The notes under the pieces are model-generated. The model saw only the letters and a program-made list of their open reading frames with translations, ran no database searches and was not told the origin of the DNA. The translations under genes and the position numbers were made by a program. A stretch of DNA of 64,000 bases. It comes from an uncultured delta proteobacterium. GTDB lineage: Bacteria; Myxococcota; UBA727; VGSZ01. The stretch is from positions 352,001 through 416,000 of the forward strand of contig CAVZJB010000004.1 of the NCBI GenBank assembly GCA_963775425.1. The letters are read 5' to 3'. Numbering within the stretch: the first letter of the stretch is position 1; every line of letters begins with the position of its first letter. This document shows, piece by piece, positions 3,966 to 40,814 of this stretch.

Positions 3966-5213
3966 GTGACGTCCCCCGCCCGCCTCCCGGTCCGCCGCGC
4001 CGCCGTCGCACGCGGCCTCGCCGTGGCCGTCGCGGGCGTCGCCGTCGCCGCGGCGTGCGCCCCGGGGCTGCGCCTCGACGCGGCCACGCCGAGCCCGGTG
4101 GCGCCCGGGGCCTCGCTCGCCGTCACCGGCGACGGCTTCGCCGACGGCATGCGGCTGTCGCTGGTGCAGGGCGGCGTCACGGTGGCCCTGCAGCGCGTCT
4201 CCGTCTCCCGGCCCGGCGCGGCTTCGGCGGTGGTGCCCGACGCCGCCCCGGCCGGCAGCTATTCGCTGCACGCCGACCTCGACGGCAACAGCGCCACCCT
4301 GGACGGCGTGCGCGTCGTCCCCGGCGGCATGCAGGTGCACTTCCTCGACGTGGGCCAGGGCGACGGGACGCTGGTGATCGCGCCCGGGGGCGAGACCCTG
4401 CTCATCGACGGCGGGCCGAGCGACGCCGCCGGCGCCGTGGCAGACGACGTCTTGAACCTCGCCGGCGGCCGCGTCGACGCCGTCATCCTCACCCACTACC
4501 ACGCCGATCACCTCGGCGGCCTCGTGCCGCTGCTCGCGGGCCCCGACCACACCCCGGGCACCAACGACGACGTCATCCCCGCCCAGCGCTGGGCCTACGT
4601 CGACGACGGCCAGTGCACCTCCGACCTGTGCGGGCGCGCGCGCCGGCTGCTCGCGTGGCCCTTCACGGTGCCGCACGTCGGTGACAGCTTCGCCCTCGGC
4701 GACGTCACCGTCGAAGCCGTGACCGTCGACGGCGACGCCGGCGCCGGCCGCGTCAGCGGCGTCGACGACCCCAACGAGCGCAGCATCGCGGTGCGCCTCT
4801 CGTTCGCCGGGCGCACGGTGCTCGTCGAGGGCGACCTGACCGCCGGCGGCGACGGCGAGGCCGACGTCGAGGATCCCCTGTCGCAGCGCATCGGCGCCGT
4901 CGACGTGCTGCGCACCGGTCATCACGGGAGCAACACCTCCAGCGCCGCCACGGCGCTCGCCCGTCTGGCGCCGCACGCGCTCGTCATCAGCGAGGGCACG
5001 GACAACGACTTCTGCCACCCGTCGCCGCCCGCGCTCTCGCGGCTCGCCGCCACCAACGCCCCCATCTACGCCACCGGCGACGGCATGCGCGGCCCGAGCG
5101 CCAACTGCGACGCGGCCACCGCGTGGCCGGCGTCGTCGCGGCACGGCCTCGGCACCATCCCGCTCGTCGTCGGCACCGACGGCTCGCTCACGCTGGCGGG
5201 CGACGCGCTCTGA
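3966..5213 (+). CDS. ComEC/Rec2-like metallo-beta-lactamase-fold hydrolase, lipoprotein with IPT/TIG-like domain
   Basis: FLDVGQGDG, THYHADHLGG, NERSI, GDL and GHHGS motifs of the ComEC MBL domain; AAAC lipobox; no multi-TM competence domain. Confidence 0.8.
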   Translation: MTSPARLPVRRAAVARGLAVAVAGVAVAAACAPGLRLDAATPSPVAPGASLAVTGDGFADGMRLSLVQGGVTVALQRVSVSRPGAASAVVPDAAPAGSYSLHADLDGNSATLDGVRVVPGGMQVHFLDVGQGDGTLVIAPGGETLLIDGGPSDAAGAVADDVLNLAGGRVDAVILTHYHADHLGGLVPLLAGPDHTPGTNDDVIPAQRWAYVDDGQCTSDLCGRARRLLAWPFTVPHVGDSFALGDVTVEAVTVDGDAGAGRVSGVDDPNERSIAVRLSFAGRTVLVEGDLTAGGDGEADVEDPLSQRIGAVDVLRTGHHGSNTSSAATALARLAPHALVISEGTDNDFCHPSPPALSRLAATNAPIYATGDGMRGPSANCDAATAWPASSRHGLGTIPLVVGTDGSLTLAGDAL

Positions 5214-23162: not shown

Positions 23163-26032
23163 GGCGGTCCCTCGGAGAAGATCCAACGGAAGCCGAGGTA
23201 CGTCGTGACGGTGACGTGCGCGCCGATGAGCACCACCATGAAGATGGACACCACCACATGGATGACGAGCCAGCCGCGGAACACGCGCTTGAGCTTGCCG
23301 TAGAACGCGATCTGCATCTTGGCGCGCGCGACCTTCTCGACGGTGTCCTTGTAGAACTTGAAGGCGCCGTCGTCCTTGAAGAGGCCGCGAGCCTGGTCGA
23401 CGCTCTTGTTGACCTCCTTCTTCATCTTGCCGTCGCGCACGACCACACCGACGAGCGTGCGCTCACGCGGCGCCTCGGTGGCGCGATCGAAGATGCCCGT
23501 GACGCGGCCGTAGTCGGCGGACTCCGCCATGTGCGTGTGGATCACGCGCGTCATTTCGCCGACCTGCTCCCGCAGCTCGTTGACCTGCAACACCTTCCCA
23601 GCTTGCGCCGGTACGAAGCTGAAGAGGAATCGGCCGAAGATCCCTGTGCCCACGACGACGCTCAACGCCACCCACGTCCAAACAGCCAACAGGTTGTTCA
23701 CCAGGAACGCCGCGTGGAAGGCGATGACGAGGGGGCTCATGATCCCCACGAACATGTGGAGCGTGAGCCAGGTGCGGATGGAGGCCGTCCCCTTGAGGCG
23801 CTTCCAGCGCTTGCGGAGCGCATAGAGGAAATTCGCCATCATGAAGGTGGTGGCGCCCACGCCGACGCCGTGGCCCCACAGCCCCGACGGCTTGAGCAGC
23901 GAGTGCAGCGGCGACAGCGGCCGCAGCTCCACCGGAAGCCAGTAGTACTCCTGCCCGATCATCAGGAGGGCGACGATCATCGACAGCCCGAGCAGGAACA
24001 GCGTGAGCGCGAGCCGGCGCCGGGAGCGGGCCTCGATCTGTGCCTTGGAGGGCCCGCGGTTGCCGGGGCGCTCGCCGAAGCCGCTCTTCTCCTCGCCCAT
24101 GTACTTGCGGGTGCCGACGCCGACGCCGTTCAAGAACTCCGTGGGCAACTGACCGCCGATGCTGACGATGACCGCGTCGTTCTTGAGCTTGGTCTCGTCG
24201 CGCTTCAGACGCCCGCCGGTCTTCCCCGTGCGCGTCGACGAGGCCGGCTGCCCCATCATGGTCCGCGTGCGCTCCGCGGGCTGTTGCTGCATCTCCTTCA
24301 CGTCGGCCTGCGCCACGGACCGCACCGCGCTGGTCATCCGCGGGCGCTCCTGTCCCTTCTTGGCCCCGCCCTCGAGCGGCACCGCGCGGAAGGAGCCGGT
24401 GACGCTGCTCTTGTTGTAGGCCGCCTTCTTCTTGGTCTTGGTGACGTCGCGGTCGGCGCCCGCCGGCGGCACCGACGGCTGCCTCGCCTCGGGATCCTCC
24501 GCGACGGTCTTGGCCACCGCCGCGAGGCCCTCACCGGAGGACGGGAGCGCGCGCGCCCGGAACGACGCCGTGACGCTGCCCTTGTCGTAGGGCTTCTTCT
24601 TGGGCTCCTCCTGCTGCGCGGCCGCCGCCGCCGCGCGGCCGGGGCTGCCGAGCGGGTCGGTCACCTCGGCGTCGGGCTGTTCGCCCTCGCCGAGGTTCTC
24701 GCGGCGCGCCTCCTCCGCCAAGCGCAGCATCTTCTCGGCGGCGCGCAGCTTCTGCTCCTCGGCCTTGAGCCGCTCGAGCCGCTCGGTCTCCGCGCGCTCC
24801 TCGGCGTCCCTCTTCTTCTGCTCCTCGTCGCTGAGGACGGGGCCGAGGCGCACGATGGCGTCCTCGACGGAGAGCACGCGCGTCTTGAAGAGCGGCTTCA
24901 CGCGACCGTCGTCGATGAGGCGCTTGATCTTCTCTTTGTTTCGCTGCTTGCAGCGCGCGAACGCGCCGCGGCGGTAGGAGATGTGGACCTTGGCGGTGCT
25001 CTCCTCGGCGAGCTGGATCGCGGCCTCGACGGCGGAGTCGCCGCCGCCGACGACGAGCACGCGCTTGCCGTTGTACTGGTCGGGGTCGACGAGGCGGTAC
25101 ACCACCTTGGGCATGTCCTCGCCGGGGACGTCCAGCTTGCGCGGCGTGCCGCGCAGCCCGATGGCGAGCACCACCGCGCGGCACTGCACGATGGCCTCGC
25201 TCTGCGTGGTGACCGTGAACAGCGGGGCCTTCCCCTCGATACCGACGACCTTCTGCCCCTCCTCGATGGTCACGCCGTTGGTGTCCACGAGGCGGCGCAT
25301 CTCCGCGAGCAGCTCCTCTTTGCTCAACAGCGGCGCGCCGAAGCGGCCGTAGCCGGGCATCTCGATCTGCTCGGTCATCACCACCTTGCCGCGCGGGTAG
25401 TGGGCGATGCAGCCGCCGAGGCTGTCCTGCTCGAGGATGCGCACGTCGAGGCCGCCCTGGCGGCAGGCGATGGCGCAGGCGACGCCGGCGGGGCCGCCGC
25501 CGACGACGACGACGTCGGTGAGCGTCTCGGTGGCCTCGCTGCGCTTCAAGCGATCCTTCAGGACCTTGCCGACGACGAGGCCCTGGCGCAGGGCGTTCTT
25601 GATGAGGCCCATGCCGCCGAGCTCGCCGATGATGTAGACGCCGGCGCGGCTGGACTCGAAGGAGTCGTCGGCCTTGGGCAGATCGATGCCCATCTCGGCG
25701 GTGCCGAACACGAGCTTGATGGCCCCGACGGGGCACTCCACCGCGCAGCGGCCGTGGCCGATGCAGTGCGCCGCCTCCACGAGCGCCGCGACGCCGTCGA
25801 CGACGCCGATGATCTCACCCTCGGGGCACGCCTGCGTGCACGAGAAGCTGCCCACGCACAGCACGGGATCGATCACCGGGTGCAGCGAGAGGGGCACCGT
25901 CTGCCCCTCGGCGATGGCGAGCTTGAGCTTCTCCGCGCCGCGCGCCTCGGCGCGCTTGCGCCGAAGCAACATCACCGCCATCGCCGTCACGAGGACGACG
26001 CCGACGACGAGGGAGAGCATGGCGGTGGCCAT
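23159..26032 (-). CDS. Membrane-anchored FeS + FAD/NAD(P)H thioredoxin-reductase-like oxidoreductase fused to a His-containing multi-TM domain
   Basis: N-terminal TM; CVGSFSCTQACP and CIGHGRCAVECP; VVGGGPAG; VVGGGDSAVEAA; C-terminal TMs with GHG, WLTLHM, AFHA, WLVIHV, GAHV. Confidence 0.85.
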   Translation of the reverse strand: MATAMLSLVVGVVLVTAMAVMLLRRKRAEARGAEKLKLAIAEGQTVPLSLHPVIDPVLCVGSFSCTQACPEGEIIGVVDGVAALVEAAHCIGHGRCAVECPVGAIKLVFGTAEMGIDLPKADDSFESSRAGVYIIGELGGMGLIKNALRQGLVVGKVLKDRLKRSEATETLTDVVVVGGGPAGVACAIACRQGGLDVRILEQDSLGGCIAHYPRGKVVMTEQIEMPGYGRFGAPLLSKEELLAEMRRLVDTNGVTIEEGQKVVGIEGKAPLFTVTTQSEAIVQCRAVVLAIGLRGTPRKLDVPGEDMPKVVYRLVDPDQYNGKRVLVVGGGDSAVEAAIQLAEESTAKVHISYRRGAFARCKQRNKEKIKRLIDDGRVKPLFKTRVLSVEDAIVRLGPVLSDEEQKKRDAEERAETERLERLKAEEQKLRAAEKMLRLAEEARRENLGEGEQPDAEVTDPLGSPGRAAAAAAQQEEPKKKPYDKGSVTASFRARALPSSGEGLAAVAKTVAEDPEARQPSVPPAGADRDVTKTKKKAAYNKSSVTGSFRAVPLEGGAKKGQERPRMTSAVRSVAQADVKEMQQQPAERTRTMMGQPASSTRTGKTGGRLKRDETKLKNDAVIVSIGGQLPTEFLNGVGVGTRKYMGEEKSGFGERPGNRGPSKAQIEARSRRRLALTLFLLGLSMIVALLMIGQEYYWLPVELRPLSPLHSLLKPSGLWGHGVGVGATTFMMANFLYALRKRWKRLKGTASIRTWLTLHMFVGIMSPLVIAFHAAFLVNNLLAVWTWVALSVVVGTGIFGRFLFSFVPAQAGKVLQVNELREQVGEMTRVIHTHMAESADYGRVTGIFDRATEAPRERTLVGVVVRDGKMKKEVNKSVDQARGLFKDDGAFKFYKDTVEKVARAKMQIAFYGKLKRVFRGWLVIHVVVSIFMVVLIGAHVTVTTYLGFRWIFSEGPP

Positions 26033-26047
26033 CGAATGCGCAGGATG

Positions 26048-27682
26048 TCAGAGCGTGCCGGTCACGCCCAGATCGGCCGTCAGGAGGCTTGGCGCCGAGC
26101 GCACCGTTCCGTCGGCCGCCGGCAGCGCCTGTTGAAGGTATGCGCGCCCGCGCAGGGAGAGCCAGGGGAGCACGGGAGCGTCGAGGATGGTCATCAGGGC
26201 AGCTTCGCGGTAGTCGTCGCCGAGGGCGGCGTTCTCGAAATAGGACGTGCGCACCAAAACGTCGAGCATGGGGAAGGGGACGAGCTTGGCGGACACCCAG
26301 GCCGAGCGCCCCGCGGGGAAGCCCAGCTCCTCGAGGTAACCGAGGGAGAGGCCCCCGAAGTCGCCGAGCGCCTTGGGCAGCTCCACCTGCGGCCCGAGGT
26401 AGACGCGCAGGGCGTCGGCGGCCACGTCGTAGCCGGCGCCGGAGACGACGCCGAGGGAGACGGCGGGGCCGAGATCGTACGACGCGTCGAGGTTGAAGTG
26501 GTGGGCCGTGTTCTCCGGGTTGAGGGCCACCTTCAGCGTGTCGAAGTCGATGGCGGGCGCGGCCAGGTAGCGGTAGCCGGCGCTGACGTGGACGGGATCG
26601 AACGCCGTGAGCTCCGCCTCGAAGCGGACGCCGTCGAGGCTCGCGGCGAGCTTGTCCGCCGCCGTCACCACCCGGGCCTCGGCGCCGAGGCTGCCGACGT
26701 TCGCCCAGAACATCTCGGCCTGCGCCTCGAGCTCGCCGCGGGCGGCGGCGAAGTCGGGCGTGGCCACCACGGCCGCGCGGGCGCGCGGGATCACGACGAC
26801 GCCGTCGAGCGGCGCGAGGTTCATGCCGAAGTAGAGGCCGGCGGTGATGCGATCGAGGCTCGGCGCGATGGTGATCAAGTCGGGGATGGTGCCGGCGTAG
26901 ACGCCGGCCTCCCCGGTGTCGAGGAAGCGCGCCCCCACCTGCGCGCCGTCGAGGAGCGTGACGCCCGGCGCCATCACCGGCCGAAAGCGGCCGACCTCGC
27001 CGACGATGCCGCCGTCGTCGACGCCGACGGCGGCGTCCCACACGTACAGCTCGACCAGCTCCCCCGGCCGGCCGCGCTGCGCCGTGGGCGCGACGAGATC
27101 GGACACCACGCGAAACGCGCTCGACGCGAACAGGGGGAAGCCGCCGGCGGTGAAGTGCGTGCGCACGCCGCCGTCGATGGAGGTGCGGCCGAAGACGTCC
27201 GGGGTGGTGCTGAGCGCCCAGACCTGCTCCTTGAGCGTGGCTCGCGCGCGGGTGGACATGAGGACGTCGGTGACGACGCCCTCCTTCTTCTTCACGTGCG
27301 GCAGCGGCGCGGCTTCGACGGCTTTTCTGAGCGAGCGCATCTGCCCGGGCGTCAGCGGCGTGTCCCGCTGCTGCTTCTTGTCCGGCTTGTGCTCCTCCGC
27401 GGGCGCCTCCGCCCGCACGAAGACGACGTGATCCCCGGGGACGACCTTGTCGCTGTCGCAGCGGCCGCGGGTGGCGCTCACCTCGACGACCTCGCAGGTA
27501 GCCACCTGCCGCCGGCGGCGGAACACCTTCACCTTGGCGCCGACGGCGAGGCCGTCGTCGCTGCCGACGTCGAGGTACCCCTGCTTCGCGGTGGTGTAGG
27601 TGACGGACCCGCCACCGCTCACGCCCGCGGCGATCGAGAGGGCGAAGGCGACGGCAGAGAGGGAAGAGACGGCGACGATCAC
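26048..27682 (-). CDS. Putative outer-membrane beta-barrel (porin) of the cytochrome operon
   Basis: Signal peptide, small N-terminal beta domain (YLDVGSDDGLAVG), then amphipathic beta-strands to a terminal LTADLGVTGTL; GTGA-coupled. Confidence 0.65.
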   Translation of the reverse strand: MIVAVSSLSAVAFALSIAAGVSGGGSVTYTTAKQGYLDVGSDDGLAVGAKVKVFRRRRQVATCEVVEVSATRGRCDSDKVVPGDHVVFVRAEAPAEEHKPDKKQQRDTPLTPGQMRSLRKAVEAAPLPHVKKKEGVVTDVLMSTRARATLKEQVWALSTTPDVFGRTSIDGGVRTHFTAGGFPLFASSAFRVVSDLVAPTAQRGRPGELVELYVWDAAVGVDDGGIVGEVGRFRPVMAPGVTLLDGAQVGARFLDTGEAGVYAGTIPDLITIAPSLDRITAGLYFGMNLAPLDGVVVIPRARAAVVATPDFAAARGELEAQAEMFWANVGSLGAEARVVTAADKLAASLDGVRFEAELTAFDPVHVSAGYRYLAAPAIDFDTLKVALNPENTAHHFNLDASYDLGPAVSLGVVSGAGYDVAADALRVYLGPQVELPKALGDFGGLSLGYLEELGFPAGRSAWVSAKLVPFPMLDVLVRTSYFENAALGDDYREAALMTILDAPVLPWLSLRGRAYLQQALPAADGTVRSAPSLLTADLGVTGTL

Positions 27683-28572
27683 GGCGGGGGCGTGAGACAG
27701 GGGCCTTGGTTGCCGACGGTGCAGTCGGGACCGTGGGTGTGGCAGCCGGTGCAATGCGCCACGCCCCACTCGATGGCCCAGTCCTGCGGCTCGTCACGGT
27801 AGGTGTCGTGGCACTGGAAGCAGGTGGCGGAGCACTGCGGGCAGTCGCCGACGTGATGATCGGGATCGAAGCGCGTGAGGTGGTTGCTGAGCGGGTGCAT
27901 CACCGAGTCGATGGGGGTGTCCGCGTGGCACTCCTTGCAGCTCGGCGAGTCCTCGAGCGCCGGCGCGCCCGTGGGCAGGAAGGTGCGTTGGATGGCGGGC
28001 GAGCCCGAGTGCGCGGTCTCGATGTCGACGGGATCGCGCGCGTGGCACTCGGCGCACAGGTTCTGGGTGCGGTCGTCGACGTCCGCGTGGCAGGCGGTGC
28101 AGGAGTCCACGCCGCGGTCGACGCGGGCGGCGTACACGGTGCCGCCATGCACGTCGGTGGGGTTGATGGGGAAGAACTGCTGGCTGTGGAGATCGACGCC
28201 GATCTGATCGCCCTTCACGCCGGTGGGGTGGCAGGAAAAGCAGCTCGTGTCCTGTTGGATGAAGCCGGCGACGACGGCGTGCACCGTGCTCAAGGGCCGA
28301 TCATCGTCGGCGTGGCAGATGATGCACTGGGGGGTGGCGAAGGTGCCCGCCCCCTTGTGGCAGGAGTCGCACGAGATCGCGGCGCCGTCCTGCGCGGGGG
28401 AGCCGATCTGGTGCGTGGCGGCGTCGCCGCTGATGGGGAAGTACGCGGCGGTGTGCTCCTCGGGGGTGACGCCGAGCTGGAGCTTGGGATCGCCGTCGCA
28501 GCCGGCGGCGGCGGCGGCGGCGGCGCACATGATCACGGGGAGCAGGACGGAGGCGCGCACGACACGCAGCAT
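27679..28572 (-). CDS. Octaheme cytochrome c lipoprotein
   Basis: MLRVVR...AAAGC lipobox; CDSCH, CIICH, CFSCH, CTACH, CAECH, CKECH, CFQCH, CTGCH. Confidence 0.85.
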   Translation of the reverse strand: MLRVVRASVLLPVIMCAAAAAAAGCDGDPKLQLGVTPEEHTAAYFPISGDAATHQIGSPAQDGAAISCDSCHKGAGTFATPQCIICHADDDRPLSTVHAVVAGFIQQDTSCFSCHPTGVKGDQIGVDLHSQQFFPINPTDVHGGTVYAARVDRGVDSCTACHADVDDRTQNLCAECHARDPVDIETAHSGSPAIQRTFLPTGAPALEDSPSCKECHADTPIDSVMHPLSNHLTRFDPDHHVGDCPQCSATCFQCHDTYRDEPQDWAIEWGVAHCTGCHTHGPDCTVGNQGPCLTPPP

Positions 28573-28695
28573 ACGACGCCCGTTGCTCGGCTGCTGCCGG
28601 GCGAGGGGCGCACTCCGCACTTCGACCGAGGTGTCCCCGCCGGTGGACCGCGGACGCATTCGTCCCGCGCCCCGCGATCTGCTAAAGAGAGCGGC

Positions 28696-30216
28696 ATGCG
28701 CATCCTCCCGTTCTTCTTCGTGCTCGCGTTCTCGACGACAGCGGCTGCGAACAACATCGGCATCTTCGGCAAGTCCGGCCGCGACACGGACAGCGGCACC
28801 TGCACCCAGTGCCACAACGTCGACGGGATCGACGCCACCGTCCTCAACACACCCGCCCCCACCATCACCGTGGACGGGCTCGATGGGCCGTTCTTCGCCG
28901 GTGGCACGGCCGACATCACCATTACGGTGAAGACCAACGATCCGAGCGGCGGCATCGCCGAGGCCAACTGCCCCGTGCGCTGCGCGGGCTTCGGCGCCGC
29001 CGTGGACAAGGGGGCCGGGTTCTTCATCGTGCCTGACGGCTCCCCCGTGCAGGTGAACGGCACCCGCGACGAGGTCGCGCACATCGCCAAGCAGCAGTTC
29101 GTCGACGGCGCCGTCAGCTACCATGTCCTCCTCGGCGGCCTCGCCGTCGGGGACCACACGCTCTTCGTGGCCGGCAACGACGTCGACGGGCAGATCCAGC
29201 TCGGCGATCGGGTCGCGTCCGCCACGTTCCCCTTCACCGTGGACGAGTCGTCGCCGCCGCCGCCGCAGGACGGTGGCTGCGCGCAGACCGGCGGCGACGT
29301 GCCGGCGCTCGGGGCGCTCTTCCTGCTGGCGCTCCTCGCGCTGCGCCGCCGCTCCGCCGGCGCCACGAGCGCCGCGCTCGTCGCCGGCGCGTGTCTCGTG
29401 CTCTCGGGCAACGCGCAGGCGGCCAACCCGCGCAACAGCCAGGACAACTGTCCATCGGCGGTGCCCGGCGCCACCACGGCGGTGAAGGACGTCGACGGCG
29501 GCGTCGAGCTCACGGTCACGGGCAGCGGCCACGCCACCAACAAGATCCGCAAGCGCGCCAGGTCCATCGCCGCGGCGAGCAAGCGCCAGCCCAAGGCCAC
29601 CAAGCACAACGGCCGGGGCGACGGCGGCGGCCGCACCGGGCGCTGTCCGGTGGTGATGGTCAAGTCTTCCGTCGTCGCCAAGAACGTCGACGGCGGCGCG
29701 CTGCTCACGGTCAAGGCCGACAACGCCGCCGACGTCGACTGGCTGCGCAAGGAGACGCGCGCGCGCCTCGAGGAGCAGACCGCGGCGTCCGCCGGCCACG
29801 GCAAGATGCTGCACTGCCCGAGCGCGCTCGACGGCGCGGCCACGCAGGTCACGGACACCAAGGACGGCGTCGTCGTGACGGTCACCGGTCCCGAGAAGGA
29901 CATTCGCGCGCGCACCAAGGACCTCATCGAGGCAGCGTCCAAGGCGGACGAGAGCGCCATGGGCCACGGCGGCAACGGCCAGGGCGGCGGCAGCTTCGGG
30001 CGCTGCCCCGTCGTCGTCACCGACACCAAGCTGTCCGCCGCGGACGTGCCCGGCGGCTCGAAGATCACCGTCGCGGCCAAGGCGCCGGCGGGGGTCGCCG
30101 CGCTCCAGAAAGAGGCCCACGCGCGCGCGGAGCGCTTCCCTGCTCCCGCCGCCGCAGCACCGGAGAAGCCCGCGCCCGAAAACGCGCCGGCCACGCCCGC
30201 GCCGCATGCGAAGTAG
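28696..30216 (+). CDS. Two-part secreted protein: Reeler-like CxxCH domain, internal MYXO-CTERM, second signal peptide, duplicated CP/Gly-loop domain
   Basis: MRILPFFFVLAFSTTAAA signal; GKSG...CTQCH; GGCAQTGG...LFLLALLALRRR; then SAALVAGACLVLSGNAQA; two ~105-aa repeats. Confidence 0.8.
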   Translation: MRILPFFFVLAFSTTAAANNIGIFGKSGRDTDSGTCTQCHNVDGIDATVLNTPAPTITVDGLDGPFFAGGTADITITVKTNDPSGGIAEANCPVRCAGFGAAVDKGAGFFIVPDGSPVQVNGTRDEVAHIAKQQFVDGAVSYHVLLGGLAVGDHTLFVAGNDVDGQIQLGDRVASATFPFTVDESSPPPPQDGGCAQTGGDVPALGALFLLALLALRRRSAGATSAALVAGACLVLSGNAQAANPRNSQDNCPSAVPGATTAVKDVDGGVELTVTGSGHATNKIRKRARSIAAASKRQPKATKHNGRGDGGGRTGRCPVVMVKSSVVAKNVDGGALLTVKADNAADVDWLRKETRARLEEQTAASAGHGKMLHCPSALDGAATQVTDTKDGVVVTVTGPEKDIRARTKDLIEAASKADESAMGHGGNGQGGGSFGRCPVVVTDTKLSAADVPGGSKITVAAKAPAGVAALQKEAHARAERFPAPAAAAPEKPAPENAPATPAPHAK

Positions 30217-31222
30217 CCCGTTCTTCGCCGCAGGGGCCCTCGCCGCCGCGGTCCTCGTCGCAGGCTGTCACGAGGCGAGCGCGCCCGCCGCGCCCGCCAC
30301 GCCCGCCAACGTGTCCGCCGACGCCGGGCCGGCGCGCGGCCACGCCGTCATCGCGCCGCGCGCGGGCGGCGGCGGCCGCGGCAAGCGCGGCGGCGGCGGC
30401 GGCGGGAACGGCGCCGGCGGCGGCGTGGGCGGCCCCAAGCGGCGCTTCCGCACGCCGTTCGTGTACGCCGACGGCGTCCCCCTGGGGGCCATGCGCTTCG
30501 GCGAGCTGCCGGCGCGGCTCGAGACCACCTGGCTCCCCGTCGACGGCCTCGACAAGGGCGTGCGGCGCTTCGTGCTGATCGACTACTTCGCCGCCCTCGG
30601 CATCGACGTGAAGAAGATCAAGACGGTGCACCTGTACAGCGGCCGCAGCCGCGTGTCCGTCGTCGACGGAGACGCGCTGCGCCGGGAGAAGGGCGCGGAG
30701 CGCACGCTCTTCCAGTTCACCCAGAGCAACCGCGGCAAGGTGCAGATGCGCTGGCCCGATCACACGACCACCACGGATCGCATCGACAAGGTCAACGACG
30801 TCGCCGTCTATCTCGACAAGAAGCCGCCGGAGATCACCCACGAGGGGCCGGTCCTCGACGGCAAAGAGCTCGACGAGATCCCCTACGTCACCACGGACGT
30901 GCAGGGCGGCACCCACGTCACCGTCGACGGGACGCTGCGCGCCTTCGTGCGCCCGCGTGATCTCGACGCCTCGAAGGGGCCCGTCTCCCTGCTCGAAGTG
31001 ATCTCTGAAAAAGGCATTTCCACCGCTGAATTGAAGGCCGCAGATCTGATCGACGGCGACGAGCTCGTCCGTCGGTTGACGGTGGGGCAGTTGCCGTCGC
31101 TGAGGGTGACTGCCCCAGGCGGCGGCAACGGCGGCGTCCTGCAAACCTCTCCAGATGCTCGAAATATCACAGCAATTCTCCTCTACCTCCACGCCACGCC
31201 GCCCGATTGGGCAAGCCGCTGA
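30206..31222 (+). CDS. Lipoprotein, hypothetical, with Gly-rich segment
   Basis: MRSSPFFAAGALAAAVLVAGC lipobox; overlaps the upstream stop; normal codon bias. Confidence 0.75.
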   Translation: MRSSPFFAAGALAAAVLVAGCHEASAPAAPATPANVSADAGPARGHAVIAPRAGGGGRGKRGGGGGGNGAGGGVGGPKRRFRTPFVYADGVPLGAMRFGELPARLETTWLPVDGLDKGVRRFVLIDYFAALGIDVKKIKTVHLYSGRSRVSVVDGDALRREKGAERTLFQFTQSNRGKVQMRWPDHTTTTDRIDKVNDVAVYLDKKPPEITHEGPVLDGKELDEIPYVTTDVQGGTHVTVDGTLRAFVRPRDLDASKGPVSLLEVISEKGISTAELKAADLIDGDELVRRLTVGQLPSLRVTAPGGGNGGVLQTSPDARNITAILLYLHATPPDWASR

Positions 31223-31333
31223 CCGCCATGTGGCAGCTCGATGGCATGTGCGTGGACGTCCCATCCGTGCAGTGCCCGAGGCGCGCTGTGCGGGACTCCA
31301 CGGATACTGCCTCTCGGTCCCCCGGAGAAACAC

Positions 31334-34300
31334 ATGAACCACAATCGCAAACTCTCAGTGCTCTTCGGGGTCGCAGCGGCCCTGCTCCTCGCCACCACCG
31401 CGACGGCTCAGGTGCAACGCGCACCTGTCTCCGTCCGGCTCACGAACGGTCTCGATGCGGGCCCTTCGGGTGACAACACCGGACCGGGCGCCGAACAAGC
31501 GACCCTCGTGCAGTCCGTCGTCGACGGCCACCACTACATCACCACGGTCTGGATGTCGTCGCAGGTCGGCAACGGTGACCGTCCCTACCAGTGCAAGTGC
31601 GCCACCACCGAGCTCGACCCGCTGCAGGGTCCCCGCACCGTCGCGGGCCCCACGCAGATCACCGCCCTCAACGGCGATCGTCCGTGCAACCACCCGCACA
31701 TGGACATCAACCCGCTCACCAACCAGATCCTGTTGAGCTACGGCAGCACCAACGGCAGCAACAACGTGCAGCCGTATGTCCAGGGTCTCGACGTCATGTG
31801 CAACGTGACGACGAACAAGATCCGCATCGGCAACAACAACGGCAACGACGGCGCGCCGTGGGTCCAGGTGGTGAACCCCGCCACGGGCCTGTTCCAGGTC
31901 GGCTACCTGGAGAACAACCAGCGTTCGCGCGCGGTCGGCGTCAGCCTCCCCGCGGGCGCCACCGCGCTCACCCGCGGCAACGACGGCAACCACAGCGTCG
32001 GCGGCAACGTCCTGTACAACAAGACCATCGTCGGCACGGCCAACATCGGCCGTCCCTCGATCGCCCGTGTCAGCGACACCAGCACCATCTTCTGCTCCAG
32101 CAACGGTGACAACCGCCCGCCGGAGTTCGGCGTCGCCTGCGCCGCCGTCGACGCCCTCACCGGCGACAAGACCTGGGACAACAACACCTGCACGCCCGCC
32201 CGCGGCAACAACACCCAGGGCTCCTGCCTCATCGCGCAGTCGCACCCGAACGCGAACCCGCCGACGTACATGAACCAGCCGATCGTCGCCCTCGGCGAAA
32301 ACGGCCGCTTCTACGTGCAGGTCGAGCAGAGCAACGGCCCGCCGAACAACAACAACAACAACGCCCGCGGCGCCACCACCACCATGCTGTACACGCTGCT
32401 CCCGAACGCGACCGGCCCGAGCATCCAGGGCCACGTCGAGAGCATCGGCCTCAACCAGGTGCACGCCACCACCTGCACCGGCAAGTACGGCCAGGACGCC
32501 AAGGTCCACGTCGCGGTCGTCGACTCCTCCATCACCGGCTCCGGCATCGGCGCCGTGCAGCTCGAGAAGTTCGACATCACCGGCCAGACCCTGACCCAGG
32601 TCGGCAACCCGCTCGCCCTCTCCGGCTACCCGGCGGACAGCGGCTACCTCGCCAACCAGGACGGCCAGAACCCGAACGACCAGGGCCGTGACTTCATGCG
32701 CTGCATCGGCGACATCGCCAACCCCGGCTTCGGCGTGGCCAACGGCTTCATGCCCACCGTGCAGAGCTTCTTCGCCATCCCCTTCGCCGGCTGCGCCGAC
32801 GACCAGGGCGCGGCGTGCGACCCCGACGTCAACCCGAACAACCCCGAGAAGAACTCGCTGTTCCTGAGCCTCCTGCCCGCCGAGGAGCCCGCGCCCGCGC
32901 CCATCGTGACCCACGACCTCTCCGTCGTCGTCGATGGCCAGGGCACCGGCAAGGTCTTCTCGAGCCCGCTCGGTGTCGACGGCTGCGACAGCGGCGCCAC
33001 CTGCACCGCCACCTTCGACGAAGGCACCAACATCACGCTGACCGCTCTCGCCGGTGAAGGCTCCATCTTCAGCGGATGGCAGGGCGCCTGCACGGGCACC
33101 GGCGGCTGCGTCGTCGCCATGAGCCAGGCGCAGCAGGTCACCGCGACCTTCGACGTCGGCGGCGTCATCGTGAACGACCCCGTCGGCCTCATCGTGAGCG
33201 TCCTCGGTCAGGGTGACGGCAGCGTGACCTCCGACCCCGCGGGCATCACCTGCACCGGCGGCACCTGCGCCAGCAACTTCGACCGCAACAGCAGCGTGAC
33301 GCTCACCGCCACTCCCGGCGCGGGCTCGAAGTTCACGGGCTGGAACGGCGACTGCAGCGGCACCGAGCCCTGCGTGCTCACGCTCAGCGCCGCGCGCAAC
33401 GTGACCGCGGTGTTCGACCTCGACCCGAACGCGCCCGACGGCGGCGACAACGGCAACGGCAACGGCGGCGACGTGACCAAGGCTCCGGGCGCGAGCTCGA
33501 CGGGCTTCAACTGCGCCTCGAGCGGTTCCAGCCCGAGCGCCTACGCCATGCTCGCGCTCGTGGCGGGCGGCCTGTTGTTCCTCCGTCGCCGGAGGTCGGT
33601 TCTGACGGGCGCCGCGAGCGCTGCCGTCGCCGTCGGCCTCGTCGCCTCGCTGACCGCCTGCCCGGCGGCGGCGCCGACCCCGGTCATCGACGCCTTCGTC
33701 GCCGACCAGCCCACGGTCGCGGCGGGGACGCCGGTGCAGCTCTCCTACCAGGTGCATGACGCCGAGGCGGTGACCATCTCCGTGCTCGCCGGTGTCGACG
33801 TGCTTCCCTTCAGCGACCAGCTGAGCGGAACCATCTTCACCCCACCGGTGACGGTCCCCACCACGTTCGTCATCACGGCGTTCGGCCCCGCGCTTGCGGG
33901 GCGCGCCCCCATCCAAAGCACCAAGACGGTGAGCGTGACGGTGGGTGACCCCGCCAACCCGACGCCGAGCGAGGGCGAGGGCGAGGGCGAGAACAACGTC
34001 GCGGTCCACGCGCAGATCCTGTCGTTCGGGCCGTCGGCGACCAACGTCACCACCGGCGACTCCGTGACCCTGACCTGGCAGACGAGCAACGCCGCCTCCG
34101 GCGTCATCCTCGCCAACGACGCGGTGCTGACCACCATCACGGCGTCCGACCTCACCACCGGCACGTTCGGCACCACCCCCGACGCGTCCGCGGTGTACAC
34201 GCTGTCGCTGTCCGGCTCCGACGGTCAGCTCGTGACGTCGACGACGGCCGTGAACGTGTCCCCGCCGGGCGTGGGGCCGCTCACCGCCGAGGCGATGTTC

Positions 34301-35029
34301 TCGAGCAACGTCGAGCCCATCCTGCAGTCGAAGTGCGGTGTCTGCCACGAGTCGGGCAACGCCTCGGGCTACCCGGACCTCTTCGGCACCAGCAGCCCCG
34401 ACACCTACTACCAGCGCGTCACCGCCGACTCGCGGTTCATCCCCGCGGTCCCCGAGGACAGCCTGCTGCTGTTGAAGGGTGAGCACACCGGCCCGGCGTT
34501 CCTCCCGGCGGAGGCGCAGCAGGTGACCGCGTGGCTCGTGCAGGAAGCGGGGGAGCGCGGCACCGGCTCCACCGGCCCCACCGACCCGGGTCCGACGGGC
34601 AACTTCCAGCCGACCACGCTCGCCGAGGCCCTCACCCGCTTCGGCGCCTGCATGGACCGCCAGGTGTGGGACAACACCGTGGGCCAGGGCAACAACACGC
34701 GCATCGCCCAGCAGAACACCACGCAGGGCAAGTGCATGGGCTGCCACTCCTCCGGCACGGCGGGCGCGTTCCTGAGCGCCAGCTCCGGTGACACGTTCGA
34801 CATGAACCGCACCCGCCCCTACGTCCTGAAGCTCGTGCTCAGCACGGCCAACGTCGATGGCTCCTTCAAGGACCTCGTCGCGGCCCGCCGCTTCGAGAAG
34901 AAGGGCAGCGAGGGCGGCGACCACCCGAGCTACCAGCTCACCCAGGCCCGCCTCGACGCCATCAACAGCTTCGTGGACCAGACCCTCACGTCGTACCACG
35001 ACTACACGCAGGCCTGTAACAACCCGTAG
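31334..35029 (+). CDS. Large two-part surface protein: N-domain + 2 InlB-B-like repeats, internal MYXO-CTERM, second lipoprotein signal, Ig-like domains, 2 CxxCH
   Basis: GGAG RBS; MNHNRKLSV...ATA signal; G.G.V.S.P.GI.C...F.GW.G.C.G..C repeats; GFNCASS...LLFLRRRR; then ...VASLTAC; CGVCH and CMGCH. Confidence 0.85.
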   Translation: MNHNRKLSVLFGVAAALLLATTATAQVQRAPVSVRLTNGLDAGPSGDNTGPGAEQATLVQSVVDGHHYITTVWMSSQVGNGDRPYQCKCATTELDPLQGPRTVAGPTQITALNGDRPCNHPHMDINPLTNQILLSYGSTNGSNNVQPYVQGLDVMCNVTTNKIRIGNNNGNDGAPWVQVVNPATGLFQVGYLENNQRSRAVGVSLPAGATALTRGNDGNHSVGGNVLYNKTIVGTANIGRPSIARVSDTSTIFCSSNGDNRPPEFGVACAAVDALTGDKTWDNNTCTPARGNNTQGSCLIAQSHPNANPPTYMNQPIVALGENGRFYVQVEQSNGPPNNNNNNARGATTTMLYTLLPNATGPSIQGHVESIGLNQVHATTCTGKYGQDAKVHVAVVDSSITGSGIGAVQLEKFDITGQTLTQVGNPLALSGYPADSGYLANQDGQNPNDQGRDFMRCIGDIANPGFGVANGFMPTVQSFFAIPFAGCADDQGAACDPDVNPNNPEKNSLFLSLLPAEEPAPAPIVTHDLSVVVDGQGTGKVFSSPLGVDGCDSGATCTATFDEGTNITLTALAGEGSIFSGWQGACTGTGGCVVAMSQAQQVTATFDVGGVIVNDPVGLIVSVLGQGDGSVTSDPAGITCTGGTCASNFDRNSSVTLTATPGAGSKFTGWNGDCSGTEPCVLTLSAARNVTAVFDLDPNAPDGGDNGNGNGGDVTKAPGASSTGFNCASSGSSPSAYAMLALVAGGLLFLRRRRSVLTGAASAAVAVGLVASLTACPAAAPTPVIDAFVADQPTVAAGTPVQLSYQVHDAEAVTISVLAGVDVLPFSDQLSGTIFTPPVTVPTTFVITAFGPALAGRAPIQSTKTVSVTVGDPANPTPSEGEGEGENNVAVHAQILSFGPSATNVTTGDSVTLTWQTSNAASGVILANDAVLTTITASDLTTGTFGTTPDASAVYTLSLSGSDGQLVTSTTAVNVSPPGVGPLTAEAMFSSNVEPILQSKCGVCHESGNASGYPDLFGTSSPDTYYQRVTADSRFIPAVPEDSLLLLKGEHTGPAFLPAEAQQVTAWLVQEAGERGTGSTGPTDPGPTGNFQPTTLAEALTRFGACMDRQVWDNTVGQGNNTRIAQQNTTQGKCMGCHSSGTAGAFLSASSGDTFDMNRTRPYVLKLVLSTANVDGSFKDLVAARRFEKKGSEGGDHPSYQLTQARLDAINSFVDQTLTSYHDYTQACNNP

Positions 35030-38185: not shown

Positions 38186-38595
38186 GAGCCCGAGCGCTCA
38201 CCTCGCTCGCCGGCGTCGCCGCCGCGGGACTGCTCGCCGGCGTCTGGCCGAGCTGTCTCCCCGACGGCCCGCCGGAGATCTGCGACAACGGGATCGACGA
38301 CGACGGCGACGGCAACGTCGACTGCGACGACGCCGACTGCGAAGCCGAGTGCGCCGTCACCGCTGGCGAGGGCGAAGGGGAAGGCGAAGGCGAGGGCGAG
38401 GGCGAAGGGGAAGGCGAAGGGGAGGGCGAAGGGGAGGGCGAAGGGGAGGGCGAAGGTGAGGGTGAGGGTGAGGGCGAAGGTGAGGGTGAAGGCGAGGGCG
38501 AAGGTGAGGGTGAGGGTGAAGGCGAGGGCGAAGGTGAGGGCGAAGGCGAAGGCGAGGGAGAGGGCGAGGGTGAAGGTGAAGGCGAGGGCGAATGA
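38182..38595 (+). CDS. Small lipoprotein-like protein: [13 protein letters not shown] motif + terminal (GE)38
   Basis: ATGA-coupled at both ends; hydrophobic signal ending in WPSC; [22 protein letters not shown]. Confidence 0.7.
38365..38592 (+). repeat. Hexanucleotide coding repeat (GGN GAR)x38
   Basis: 228 nt of Gly-Glu codons with mixed synonymous positions. Confidence 0.95.
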
Positions 38596-40814
38596 TGAGG
38601 ATGTCGACGGCAGCGCTCGCGTGCGCGCTCGTCGCTGCGGTGCCCGCGCGAGCGGGGGTGGAGACCTCGTGGGACTGCTTCTTCGCCGCCGAAGGCGTTG
38701 ATTGCTCCCAGCTCGAAGAAGCGTTCTTCCACGCGACCCCGTTGTTGATCCGTGTCGACGCGCCGGACAAGCCGGCGCCCTACGACGGTGGAGCCGTGCA
38801 CCCGTCGAGCGACGAGCGCGCCGGGGCCTCGCCGGCGTCGGGCGAGCCGGGCGCGACGTGGGGCGCCGGGGCGTCGCCGGCGTCGGGCACGCCGGGCGCG
38901 ACGTGGGGCGCCGGGGCGTCGCCGGCGTCGGGCACGCCGGGCGCGACGTGGGGCGCCGGGGCGTCGCCGGCGGCGGGCACGCCGGGCGCGACGTCGGGCG
39001 CAGGGGCGTCGCCGGCGGCGGGCACGCCGGGCGCGACGTGGGGCGCAGGGGCGTCGCCGGCGTCGGGCACGCCGGGCGCGACGTCGGGCGCAGGGACGTC
39101 GCCGGCGTCGGGCACGCCGGGCGCGACCTCGGGCGCAGGGACGTCGCCGGCGGCGGGCACGCCGGGCGCGACCTCGGGCGCAGGGACGTCACCGGCGGCG
39201 GGCACGCCGGGCGCGACCTCGGGCGCAGGGACGTCGCCGGCGGCGGGCACGCCGGGCGCGACCTCGGGCGCAGGGACGTCGCCGACGGCGGGCGCGCCGG
39301 GCGCGACCTCGGGCGCAGGGACGTCGCCGGCGGCGGGCACGCCGGGCGCGACCTCGGGCGCCGGGACCTCGCCGGCGGCGGGCGAGCCGGCCGCCACGTG
39401 GGACGCCGGGACGTCGCCGGCGTCGGGCACGCCTGCGGCCGCGTCGGGCGCAGCGACGTCACCGTCGTCGGGCGCCGCGACGGCGCCGGAGCCGCCGGGT
39501 GCAGGCGCTCCGGCGCACGCCGCACCACCGGCAGCGCCGGACGACTCCTCGCACGCGGCGCCGGACGCTCCCCCTCAGGCATCGACGCACGCGGATGCGT
39601 CGACGAGGCGGGTCGCGGTGGTGCTGCGCAGCACGCCGTTCACCGGGGGCGTCGAGTACAGCATCGACATCACCGGCGCCGACGGGCGCGAGCACGTGGG
39701 CATCGTGGACCGCGTGCCGTCGACCTTCTCCGACGCCACCGTCGGCAATGGCAGCGGCGGCGGCGGCGGGCTCGGCGGCGGCGCCGACACCGGCGGCGGC
39801 GGCGGACAGGGGACGGGCGGCGGCAGCGGCCGCGGCCGCGTCTCGCGCAGCGCCGTCGTCGTCCTCCGCCTCGTCGCCGATCTCCAGCGGGCGATCGTGC
39901 CGTTCCTCTCCGCCGACCACCCCGCCGTCGTCGACGACGACGGCATGACGCTCTCCCTCAAGGACCCCGCCTTCACGCCGGGCCAGGCGCGCGTCGAGGA
40001 CCGCGCCGCCCGCTGGTTCGCGAGCCCTACGTTCTCCGGCGACGTCTCCCAGACCGCCCTCCTGCGCATCCAGGGCCGCGCGCAGCTCGACGCCAACTGG
40101 TCCAATCCGCTCTTTCGCGTCTTCGGCACGTCGTGGGCCGGCTTCACGTTCCTCTCCGCGCCGGGGCCGCGGGAGAAGGACCCGGCCCAGACCTTCGGCT
40201 ACGCCATCGACGGCCTCGACGTCACCGGCGCCAGCGTCCTCGGCGGCGGCTGGAGCGTCGGTGTCGAGGGCCGCGTCACCCAGGCGCCCGACCAGAACTG
40301 GTTGCTGCGGGCCTCCGGCTACACCGGCGTCGAGTGGGTCCTCGTGCCCTTCCTCGCCACCAACGGCGGCAACGTCGGCGTCCGCTACGTCATCGGCACC
40401 GAGCACCAGGAGTACGTCCACGAAAACGTCGAGAAGTCGTTCGAAGGAAACTTTCTCCGCCACCGGCTCGTCGCCTTCGGCGTCTGGCACTTCGAGCGCG
40501 TCGACCTCTCCGCGTCTCTCGCCGGCAGCTCCATCGTCAAGGACTTCACCTACTCGGACGTGTCCGCCGCGGCCAGCGTGGCGTGGCGCGTGGTCAACGA
40601 CCTCTCCGTCTCCCTGTCGACGACGGCGTCGTACCGAAACGCGCTCGTCAACGCCCCCGACAACCTCAACGAGCTCGATCCGCTCGAGCGGTTCGTCGGC
40701 GGGGGAAACTTCGGCGCCGTGAACTACACGGCGTCGCTGTCGTTGGTCTACGTCCTCGGCAACTCGCTGCTCGAGCGCCAGGACCAGAGGTGGAGCAATG
40801 GCACCGAGCAGTGA
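38592..40814 (+). CDS. Putative outer-membrane beta-barrel protein with 15-aa repeat insertion
   Basis: Signal peptide; [10 protein letters not shown]-domain; C-terminal amphipathic strands ending [13 protein letters not shown]...W. Confidence 0.7.
38820..39450 (+). repeat. 45-bp coding tandem repeat (GAG[AT]SPA[SA]GTPGAT[WS]), about 14 copies
   Basis: Direct tandem copies with no unique spacers. Confidence 0.9.

Follow-up and report, generated by a model that had tools for sequence, protein, structure and literature searches.

The window analyzed here is a stretch of 64,000 nucleotides (nt) from an uncultured delta proteobacterium (GenBank assembly GCA_963775425.1, contig CAVZJB010000004.1, positions 352,001 to 416,000); its genome, a draft of 18 contigs, is referred to below as G000. 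The window contains an open reading frame (ORF), 31334-35029 on the plus strand, in which a sorting tag of the MYXO-CTERM type is followed in frame by a lipoprotein signal peptide and a second protein. The comparisons described below make it likely that this ORF arose when two adjacent genes, whose translation was coupled, fused in frame, and that the fusion has since been retained in evolution. The ORF has the following features, the coordinates being those of the window.

31334-35029, plus strand: whole fused ORF, putative precursor of two exported proteins; 1231 amino acids (aa) plus stop in a stop-free frame; the orthologue in the related genome G003 is likewise fused.
31334-31411 (end approximate), plus strand: putative N-terminal Sec signal peptide of protein 1, MNHNRKLSVLFGVAAALLLATTATA/Q, read by eye; the homologues start alike.
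31412-32900, plus strand: predicted beta-propeller domain with conserved QCKC and RPCNHP motifs (AlphaFold2 model), without a Pfam family.
33257-33421, plus strand: second of two InlB B-repeat (Flg_new_2) domains, PF18998; the first copy lies upstream.
33509-33595, plus strand: internal MYXO-CTERM tag, TIGR03901, with Cys727, a transmembrane helix and an Arg cluster.
33591-33595, plus strand: GGAGG, putative relic Shine-Dalgarno sequence of a once separate lipoprotein gene; five unfused relatives have their Shine-Dalgarno sequence at the same spot.
33596-33661, plus strand: hydrophobic core and lipobox (LTAC) of an internal lipoprotein signal peptide, with Cys776 at 33659-33661.
33662-34249, plus strand: two repeated domains of ~95 aa each, possibly immunoglobulin (Ig)-like, with multi-stretch matches to repeat proteins.
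34250-35026, plus strand: predicted dihaem c-type cytochrome domain of an uncharacterised family, with CxxCH motifs at 34334-34348 and 34733-34747.

The ORF listing opens this frame at the ATG at 31241. The likely start is the ATG at 31334, because the first residue of the homologues aligns with it (MNHNRKLSV...). The N-terminus, MNHNRKLSVLFGVAAALLLATTATAQV, resembles a Sec signal peptide when judged by eye. At the junction of the two halves the protein reads ...GFNCASSGSSPSAYAMLALVAGGLLFLRRRR/SVLTGAASAAVAVGLVASLTAC/PAAA..., and a stop codon is absent. The initial annotation, which had described an internal MYXO-CTERM tag and then a lipobox in one stop-free frame, was therefore correct in sequence and in coordinates. 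The GC content at third codon positions (GC3) is 0.90-1.00 in a single frame in all 150-nt bins between 31484 and 34933. The two bins over the junction have values of 0.96 and 0.94 with the frame unchanged; the first bin (31334-31483) is lower with 0.74.

The tag comprises residues 726-754, NCASSGSSPSAYAMLALVAGGLLFLRRRR, and has its parts in order: NCASSGSS...YAMLALVAGGLLFL-RRRR, with a mean hydropathy of 2.2 in the helix. The codon of Cys727 is at 33512-33514 and the Arg run at 33584-33595. The score with TIGR03901 from NCBIfam is 20.1 bits, against a cut-off of 20, and the same tag reached 24.0 bits in a genome-wide search. The tag is internal and not C-terminal, since 477 residues follow the Arg cluster. 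The subsequent stretch, AVGLVASLTAC, fits a lipobox rule of the PROSITE type, which demands [LVI][ASTVI][GAS]C behind a hydrophobic segment free of charges, with the Cys 15-35 residues into the signal and K/R close to its beginning. If the first Arg is taken as position 1, the Cys is at position 26, four K/R occur within the first seven positions and the six residues preceding LTAC are uncharged. The positive charges of this lipoprotein signal peptide are thus supplied by the Arg cluster of the upstream tag, and the signal, which begins at residue 751 of 1231, is not N-terminal. The GGAGG at 33591-33595 lies within the codons CGG AGG of the Arg run; AGG is indeed rare, as had been stated, with 4.1% of the Arg codons in the whole genome.

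The AlphaFold2 model of the N half (aa 27-522; alignment of 49 sequences) is all-beta with a predicted local distance difference test score (pLDDT) of 88.2 and a predicted template modelling score (pTM) of 0.91; by this model the N half is a beta-propeller. A Foldseek comparison of the domain with the PDB returned generic beta-propellers with a TM-score of ~0.5 and an identity of 10-12%, including ulvan lyases, integrin alpha, pyrroloquinoline quinone (PQQ) dehydrogenases and sialidases. Searches of Pfam and NCBIfam gave no family for the domain, and the ESM Atlas contained only unnamed clusters, at 0.90 or less. Before the tag, PF18998 matches with 66.5 bits over two stretches, the better of which is aa 642-696.

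The C half reads as a lipoprotein with an uncharacterised dihaem c-type cytochrome domain. It starts with a region of ~200 residues, for which the initial annotation had proposed Ig-like domains. This is plausible, though weakly supported: the region is repetitive, and in one multi-repeat relative the matching repeat barely passes the Pfam I-set cut-off (24.2 bits vs 23.7), but the region itself (33659-34300) has no Pfam match. The last 259 residues are a separate family. With the 481-residue C half as query, a representative search returned 662 proteins at E <= 1e-3, and among the matches listed most cover this last domain alone. The two CxxCH motifs that had been noted are present (aa 1001-1005 and 1134-1138) and vary little or not at all among 108 aligned homologues. 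Invariant in this alignment (A3) are C32, H33, H79, C134, C162, C165, H166 and H225, with C29 almost invariant; H79 and H225 may serve as distal haem ligands. The Pfam family Cytochrome_CBB3 matches the domain with 26.5 bits, which is under the cut-off of 27. The model of the domain has a pLDDT of 91.6, and Foldseek found nothing in the PDB at E <= 1e-3. The top match with VIA-align was weak, namely the haem domain of the YhjA cytochrome c peroxidase (Z 4.5, root mean square deviation 3.3, 81 residues); FoxE (Z 4.0) and PccH (Z 3.7) were the next matches.

A homologue search for each half, which had been proposed together with the initial annotation, returned fused as well as unfused relatives. 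Among 41 related genomes searched with the C half, five matched at E <= 1e-3 when G000 is counted. A full orthologue was present only in G003, a genome from another genus of the same family; its C half matches with an E value of 8.6e-155 and 57% identity. This orthologue is a stop-free open frame of 1310 aa. Its junction is GCSSTGSAGDGALFALAMVGLLSFRRRR-QEARGPSTFRAGTLRTGTSG-IVVAASAVVAAAGLTSC, and the linker is 14 residues longer, still in frame. A search with the N part in a collection of 5.8 billion proteins yielded 53 proteins at E <= 1e-5 among 8000 candidates scored. These include eight further fused clusters of 1162-1244 aa (P0005, P0155-P0158, P0160, P0162 and P0166), each of which has the tag, the Arg cluster, the hydrophobic stretch and the lipobox Cys. 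A length typical of split proteins (541-770 aa) was found for 39 of the 53 matches. A terminal tag was recognized in 34 of these 39 by pattern and in two more by eye; these 36 are all but P0168, P0171 and P0182. The remaining matches are a fragment (P0164) and four proteins, P0200 and P0203-P0205, which match the B-repeats only. Two more distant fused proteins, P0015 (880 aa) and P0018 (1029 aa), both only 38% identical overall, came from the representative search with the C half. They lack the B-repeats and the Ig-like repeats; the propeller, the tag, the lipobox and the cytochrome domain are kept.

In an alignment of five fused proteins (A1), which are 38-64% identical to the protein from the window, Cys727, R752-754 and Cys776 are invariant. 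The lipobox Cys is present in all 11 fused proteins listed. In four of five fused lineages the signal peptide has no positive region of its own and the RRR abuts the hydrophobic core; the exception, with its own charged region, is the clade of G003. The fact that the signal peptide lacks charges of its own means that export of the lipoprotein would depend on the upstream Arg cluster. Export from the fused chain is thus more plausible than export from a separate start.

The conservation bears on the question of whether the long frame is real. The genome is a draft, and the fusion could in principle be an assembly or sequencing artefact or a recent, functionless accident similar to a pseudogene. 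We regard this as extremely improbable. The same fused frame occurs in three independent assemblies (L007, L012 and L014) and in the eight clusters, which come from several sources; the codon-position GC is uniform over the junction, and the clade has diverged to ~50% identity while being fused. The earlier statement that a chance sequencing error is not the cause is hence borne out by the related genus, the eight clusters and the two distant relatives. When sequence sets were searched for the junction, three soil-metagenome contig sets shared a small fraction of the sequence words (0.08-0.15), none of their pieces spanned 33510-33660, and no RNA data set was listed. A frameshift or sequencing error is ruled out by the codon-position GC together with the conservation. 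A chance motif that only resembles a tag is likewise ruled out, as the terminal tags of the unfused orthologues are its homologues. One of the fused relatives, L012 (JAHFDS010000530.1, ~4390-4400), has a TGA and a frame change in the linker before the tag, at a coverage of ~4x; the cause may be an error of the assembly or a genuine break in the gene.

Besides the fused loci there are loci in which the two halves are encoded by adjacent genes. A locus scan with one genome per species gave 28 pattern matches, and eight loci were confirmed. Three of these are fused (L007, on a contig of G003, L012 and L014). The other five are split; L008 carries the label Bradymonadia and the remaining four, L009, L010, L011 and L013, the label Polyangiaceae. 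The end of the propeller gene in every split locus is ...RRR(K/R)(G)x-TGA; 1-3 nt further on the lipoprotein gene begins with its ATG. For this second gene the Shine-Dalgarno sequence is inside the Arg/Lys/Gly codons of the tail and reads GGAGA, AAGGGAG, AAGGGAGG or GAAGGAG; its spacing to the ATG, counted by eye, is 6-7 nt. At L013 the two genes already share a frame, with TGA-GCC-ATG between them. Homologues of the C half that stand alone have 472-489 aa (P0006-P0009, P0011 and P0016) and are ordinary lipoproteins with lipoprotein signal peptides, e.g. MRNSNAWLIAVVGAFLLGC. The pattern of an initial Met, a hydrophobic stretch and [AGS]C is found in P0006, P0007, P0008, P0011 and P0016 as well as in the downstream genes of L008-L011 and L013.

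The corresponding sequence in the window is CGG AGG TCG GTT CTG, i.e. a GGAGG, 6 nt and a CTG (33602-33604) at the place where the unfused relatives have their ATG. In the G003 orthologue this place has CAG GAG G, which provides an AGGAGG; between this motif and the hydrophobic core the orthologue has no in-frame start codon of a canonical type. Because five unfused relatives carry a Shine-Dalgarno sequence at this position, the most fitting interpretation of the GGAGG is a leftover ribosome-binding site from the time when the second gene was separate and translationally coupled to the first. The sequence CTGA at 33602-33605, 6 nt downstream of the GGAGG, resembles the ATGA start/stop overlap of coupled genes with an A to C exchange, and its TGA no longer lies in the reading frame. 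This CTGA may be a scar of the ancestral gene boundary.

Taken together, the comparisons suggest the following origin. The first ancestral gene would have encoded a secreted beta-propeller with a C-terminal MYXO-CTERM tag, and the second a lipoprotein carrying the dihaem c-type cytochrome domain. Fusion would have consisted of the loss of the stop codon, the tiny spacer and the ATG; with these gone, the Arg cluster of the tag would also supply the positive charges with which the lipoprotein signal peptide begins.

The phylogenetic relationship of the fused and split proteins was analyzed with a maximum likelihood tree of the N domain (first 540 residues; 50 rows, 11 fused and 39 split). P0200, P0164 and P0160 were left out of the tree; the junction of P0160 is the same as that of P0002. 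The nine fused proteins with B-repeats form one clade with a support of 100 in the Shimodaira-Hasegawa-like approximate likelihood ratio test (SH-aLRT), and this clade is nested among split clades. Its sister includes the split form of the Bradymonadia type. P0015 and P0018 are placed elsewhere; P0018 is on a long branch and its position is unsure. The tree requires at least three changes of state, two of which are forced by well-supported branches, and this indicates that the fusion arose at least twice in the propeller family. The members of the fused clade have diverged to about 50% identity and are still fused.

Internal tags are not restricted to this ORF. A search of G000 with TIGR03901 listed 78 matches at E <= 1, of which 49 were over the cut-off, with 150 of 322 candidates scored. 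Six of the 78 matches listed (six of the 49 over the cut-off) are internal, and each of the six is directly followed by a segment resembling a signal peptide. The signal ends with AxA in four cases and with a lipobox in two. A hidden Markov model (HMM) built from the tags of G000 was run over all 63,302 six-frame ORFs with a length of 60 aa or more. The filters applied to its hits (presence of the Cys, Arg run, codon-position GC) left 52 tags. Of these, 44 are within 20 aa of the stop, six are the same internal tags with no further one, and behind the other two the chain runs on for 31 and 87 aa with no resemblance to a signal peptide. The six junctions in G000 are as follows.

C4:385509: ...LTAC; the junction of ORF 31334-35029.
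C4:381272: ...AQA/AN; the window junction at 29272-29427.
C11:71607: ...LAGC, lipobox type; in a 349-aa open frame (C11:71055-72104, minus strand, L018) with a CxxCH protein and its MYXO-CTERM, the lipoprotein signal and a second protein with two CxxCH, and thus another cytochrome-cytochrome junction.
C16:424249: ...SHARA/AD; in a 2917-aa open frame (C16:417316-426069, L015) with a Calx-beta/thrombospondin-repeat adhesin, the tag, a signal peptide and an outer-membrane barrel/OmpA part, the architecture of MXAN_5598 (see below).
C7:256847: ...GGAHA/AP; in a 1969-aa ORF (C7:254942-260848, minus strand, L016) with two repeat-rich units, the second of which ends in its own terminal MYXO-CTERM.
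C16:23573: ...TASA/HI; in a 484-aa ORF (C16:22985-24439, L017:286-1740) with two units resembling lytic polysaccharide monooxygenases (LPMOs), each with a signal peptide and a MYXO-CTERM tag and no stop between them.

The last ORF is the most telling of the six. Its two units match Pfam LPMO_10 with 54.3 bits over two stretches and are 55% identical to each other. They align with one another from residue 1, a His, directly after ALA/ in unit 1 and ASA/ in unit 2. The copper site of LPMOs requires an N-terminal His. Unit 2 would therefore be active only if the internal signal peptide is cut exactly there.

Fused junctions were also detected in other genomes with an HMM of the junction (alignment A5). 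Among five genomes they occurred in G005 and G013. Among 80 other genomes of the phylum (at least 90% complete) they were read in G003 (a second locus), G013, G040, G041, G054 and G090, which span the coded families f1, f4, f9, f10 and f16; eight loci were read in this survey, and five of them are fused and three have terminal tags. Since the surveys scored at most 79-150 candidates per genome, all these counts are lower bounds.

The internal tags of G000 differ from the terminal ones in codon usage. The last Arg codon is AGG in four of the six internal tags vs three of 69 terminal tags (Fisher p = 4e-4); three of the 78 rows (C8:406664, C7:87275 and C4:500446) have no Cys signature and were dropped from this count. 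Where AGG is the last Arg codon, the tail of the tag may also be, or may once have been, the site of ribosome binding for a coupled gene downstream. The initial annotation had left open whether the GGAGG is a relic or an active site. An active site would imply two initiations: the lipoprotein would be made from an internal start served by the GGAGG, for example the CTG at 33602-33604, and the read-through fusion would be unimportant or degraded. This idea is consistent with the enrichment of AGG, with the fact that GGAGG in G000 and AGGAGG in G003 are maintained at the same place by different codons, and with the position of the CTG, 6 nt past the GGAGG, where the unfused relatives have an ATG. 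Furthermore, the C7 junction of G000 has AGGA, 5 nt and an in-frame GTG, followed by the unit's own RRRVRRR region. However, G000 has no ATG, GTG or TTG 5-9 nt after the GGAGG, so that a CTG is the only candidate at the right spacing, G003 offers no canonical in-frame start before the core, and L014 lacks a motif similar to a Shine-Dalgarno sequence. A product starting at the CTG would have a signal peptide devoid of positive charge. Ribosomes coming from 31334 would read through in any case and the fused chain would be made regardless; with independent initiation there would also be no reason for the stop to stay lost in nine clusters. We therefore consider two initiations unlikely; the relic part of the earlier proposal agrees with the five unfused relatives, and the active part does not agree with the start codons available.

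The second question is what happens to the fused chain. It might remain a single uncut protein, in which the tag and the signal peptide have decayed to a two-helix anchor and the propeller and the cytochrome form one bifunctional redox protein at the periplasmic face. Quinohaemoprotein dehydrogenases are fusions of a propeller with a cytochrome c domain, and the propellers of PQQ dehydrogenases are among the fold matches of the N half. A permanent tether would hold an enzyme-like propeller beside an electron carrier; the tag is only just over its cut-off, and the cleavages are deduced. The conservation of the junction speaks against an uncut protein. Both Cys are invariant in the five aligned fused proteins in spite of 38-64% identity and a full turnover of the linker, and the lipobox Cys is found in all of the 11 listed; a mere hairpin needs neither. 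In addition, the unfused relatives make two separate proteins that are predicted to be lipid-anchored, and the LPMO-like junction needs cleavage to expose its His. An uncut protein thus has a low probability in our view, and the core of the initial proposal, namely that one ORF gives rise to a surface protein of the myxosortase type and a lipoprotein with two haem motifs processed by signal peptidase II (SPase II), is supported by the comparison.

The product of the fusion is probably cut back into two proteins by myxosortase and Lgt/LspA, and candidates for all of these enzymes are encoded in G000. The myxosortase core NF040914 (Mrt_core) matches with 102.1 bits, against a cut-off of 100, at C16:1167191-1167502; LspA (PF01252) has two matches with 114.9 and 91.2 bits, and Lgt (PF01790) has 170.9 and 147.8 bits. 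A cytochrome c biogenesis family (PF01578) matches with 84 and 54.6 bits at C3:495005-496114. Sec topology and the positive-inside rule are the basis of the path that we propose. The N-terminal signal peptide would start Sec export of the propeller, and the helix of the tag would halt the transfer with RRRR remaining in the cytoplasm. The next hydrophobic stretch, with its N-terminus inside, would then re-start export of the C half. The junction would thereby become a two-helix hairpin in the membrane, with both ends and both processing sites on the periplasmic side. Cys727 would be lipidated and myxosortase would cut after it, so that the propeller is freed for transport to the cell surface. 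Lgt and LspA would lipidate Cys776 and cut before it, releasing the cytochrome lipoprotein. A hairpin peptide of ~48 aa would be left in the inner membrane, where it is presumably degraded.

Several points weigh against a cleaved fusion of two once separate genes. The MYXO-CTERM score is only narrowly above the cut-off (20.1 vs 20), and the loop between the two helices has merely ~4-6 residues. We know of no demonstration that Lgt and LspA act on a signal peptide behind another membrane helix. Cleavage is deduced from sequence for this protein and for the whole family alike. With the propeller at the surface and the cytochrome in the periplasm there would be no clear reason for their pairing. 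The GGAGG is kept in G000 and G003 and AGG is enriched at internal tags; the motif could still act, in internal initiation or in pausing. Finally, the label 'split' of the 39 shorter homologues reflects their length and terminal tag, a downstream cytochrome gene having been checked at five loci.

The neighbourhood of the ORF is rich in redox genes. On the minus strand there are a multihaem cytochrome of 891 aa (20514-23186; Cytochrome_C7 107 bits, MtrC/MtrF-like domain 71 bits), a 573-aa protein without a family (26051-27769) and a multihaem lipoprotein (27682-28800), and the neighbourhood also contains a 957-aa flavoprotein/4Fe-4S membrane protein. In the window as in G003, the fused ORF is preceded by a lipoprotein gene (30206-31222 in the window), and a two-component regulatory system is located downstream. 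The region 20514-31222 can be described as a redox gene cluster on both strands, possibly a module for extracellular electron transfer. That propeller and cytochrome are kept as a pair, be it in one ORF or in adjacent genes, suggests a joint function. The same neighbourhood contains a companion of the fused ORF, which the initial annotation had also pointed out.

28696-30216, plus strand: companion fused ORF ('polyprotein 1'), with a MYXO-CTERM protein with a monohaem motif, a signal peptide of the signal peptidase I (SPase I) type and a 290-aa protein without a known family.

Its N half bears a CxxCH, and neither half has a match in Pfam or NCBIfam. According to the initial annotation the same architecture occurs here, 4 kb away, in an unrelated protein. 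The junction is real (29272-29427) but it ends with AQA/A, which is of the SPase I type, and has no lipobox. The G003 orthologue of the companion N half (53% identical) has a normal terminal tag and then a stop; by this comparison the companion junction is younger. Further downstream, at 38592-40814 on the plus strand, the first third of a 740-aa ORF consists of tandem units of ~16 aa, GAGASPA[SA]GTPGATxGA; the remaining frames and the complementary strand are likewise open.

How the fusions were fixed can be viewed in two ways. If the mature products are unchanged by the fusion, loss of the stop codon would cost little and would be nearly neutral. The fusion would fix a 1:1 output of two proteins that already belong to a conserved gene pair. 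The low cost together with the 1:1 output would explain the repeated origin in the family and the six sites in the genome. A more far-reaching reading is that the hairpin is a selected device. Myxobacteria would then make secretory polyproteins, and two different proteases, the lipid-dependent enzymes myxosortase and LspA or else myxosortase and SPase I, would cut them at the outer face of the inner membrane, ensuring 1:1 delivery of partner proteins to the same site; the propeller and the cytochrome would form one redox module across the envelope within the multihaem gene cluster, and the GGAGG would be a translational pause for insertion of the first helix. We offer this only tentatively and consider it doubtful.

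Some known systems share parts of this architecture. In the FbcH precursor of cytochrome b/c1 from Bradyrhizobium a membrane polyprotein is split at an internal signal peptide, which frees a c-type cytochrome. It differs from the present case in that it has no sorting tag and no lipid anchors and requires a single cut by SPase I. In viral envelope polyproteins the host signal peptidase cuts at internal signals, and alternating stop-transfer and signal helices set the topology; these are viral genes expressed in the eukaryotic endoplasmic reticulum, and lipid-dependent proteases are not involved. Precursors of Lgt/LspA lipoproteins have a lipobox, a hydrophobic core and preceding positive charges as well, but in the present ORF the signal peptide is 750 residues into the chain and its positive region is borrowed from the tag. 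A literature search for bacterial polyproteins with internal signal peptides found only viral or unrelated work among the papers listed, and no description of junctions from a tag to a signal peptide was found.

The closest case in print, as far as the accessible parts of the literature go, is MXAN_5598 of Myxococcus xanthus, which has a MYXO-CTERM in the middle of its ORF and was read as a fusion of two genes; its N part was proposed to be processed and surface-anchored (Guo, Haft & Wall, mBio 2025, PMC11980579). One such fusion with an internal tag is thus already known from the accessible text of this article, where these cases are called rare. As in ORF 31334-35029, a complete MYXO-CTERM is located inside an ORF and an exported protein is encoded after it; the domains differ, since MXAN_5598 consists of an adhesin and an outer-membrane barrel/OmpA part. 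Within the accessible text of PMC11980579 we found no mention of a signal peptide after the tag, of a hairpin or of an export route for the C half. Unlike that account, to the extent that it was accessible, ours includes a C half that is a lipoprotein with a lipobox, unfused relatives that point to the origin, and six junctions in one genome. The canonical MYXO-CTERM substrates (TraA; myxosortase MrtX; PMC11980579, bioRxiv 10.1101/2023.06.07.544157) likewise have the tripartite tag, together with an N-terminal signal peptide such as the putative one of ORF 31334-35029, in the portions of these sources available; in ORF 31334-35029, in contrast, the tag is internal with 477 residues beyond it. 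The words 'internal', 'fusion' and 'polyprotein' were not found in the available portion of Haft's in-silico paper (bioRxiv 10.1101/2023.06.07.544157). According to the same part of PMC11980579, the ORFs of TraA and TraB in M. xanthus overlap. As at L008-L011 and L013, a MYXO-CTERM gene is there tightly coupled to the gene of an exported partner; the difference, judged from this text, is that TraA and TraB belong to other protein families and that they, in contrast to the fused ORF, are two separate ORFs. The present case adds a new pair of proteins, the propeller and the dihaem cytochrome lipoprotein, as well as a junction of the lipobox type, a clear series of fused and unfused forms in which the route of the fusion, with its relic Shine-Dalgarno sequence, can be followed, and, with the LPMO-like units, an argument in favour of cleavage.

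C-terminal tags and N-terminal signals are treated as marks of the end and the start of a protein, and gene callers and annotators therefore expect neither of them in the middle of one. The propeller/cytochrome family provides a natural series of fused and unfused forms, and it displays a mutational route from one to the other, with a ribosome-binding site in the Arg tail, a spacer of 1-3 nt and the loss of a stop and a start codon. The double ORF with LPMO_10-like units lends itself to a test of whether internal signal peptides are cut. If the chains are processed as we infer, these bacteria would export several proteins per reading frame, and one gene would give two or more mature proteins, which affects the annotation of their proteomes. 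Myxosortase and Lgt/LspA would then have to handle substrates in a helical hairpin. The fusions would also reveal partnerships between proteins; in the present case they would link an unknown propeller family to an unknown family of dihaem cytochromes.

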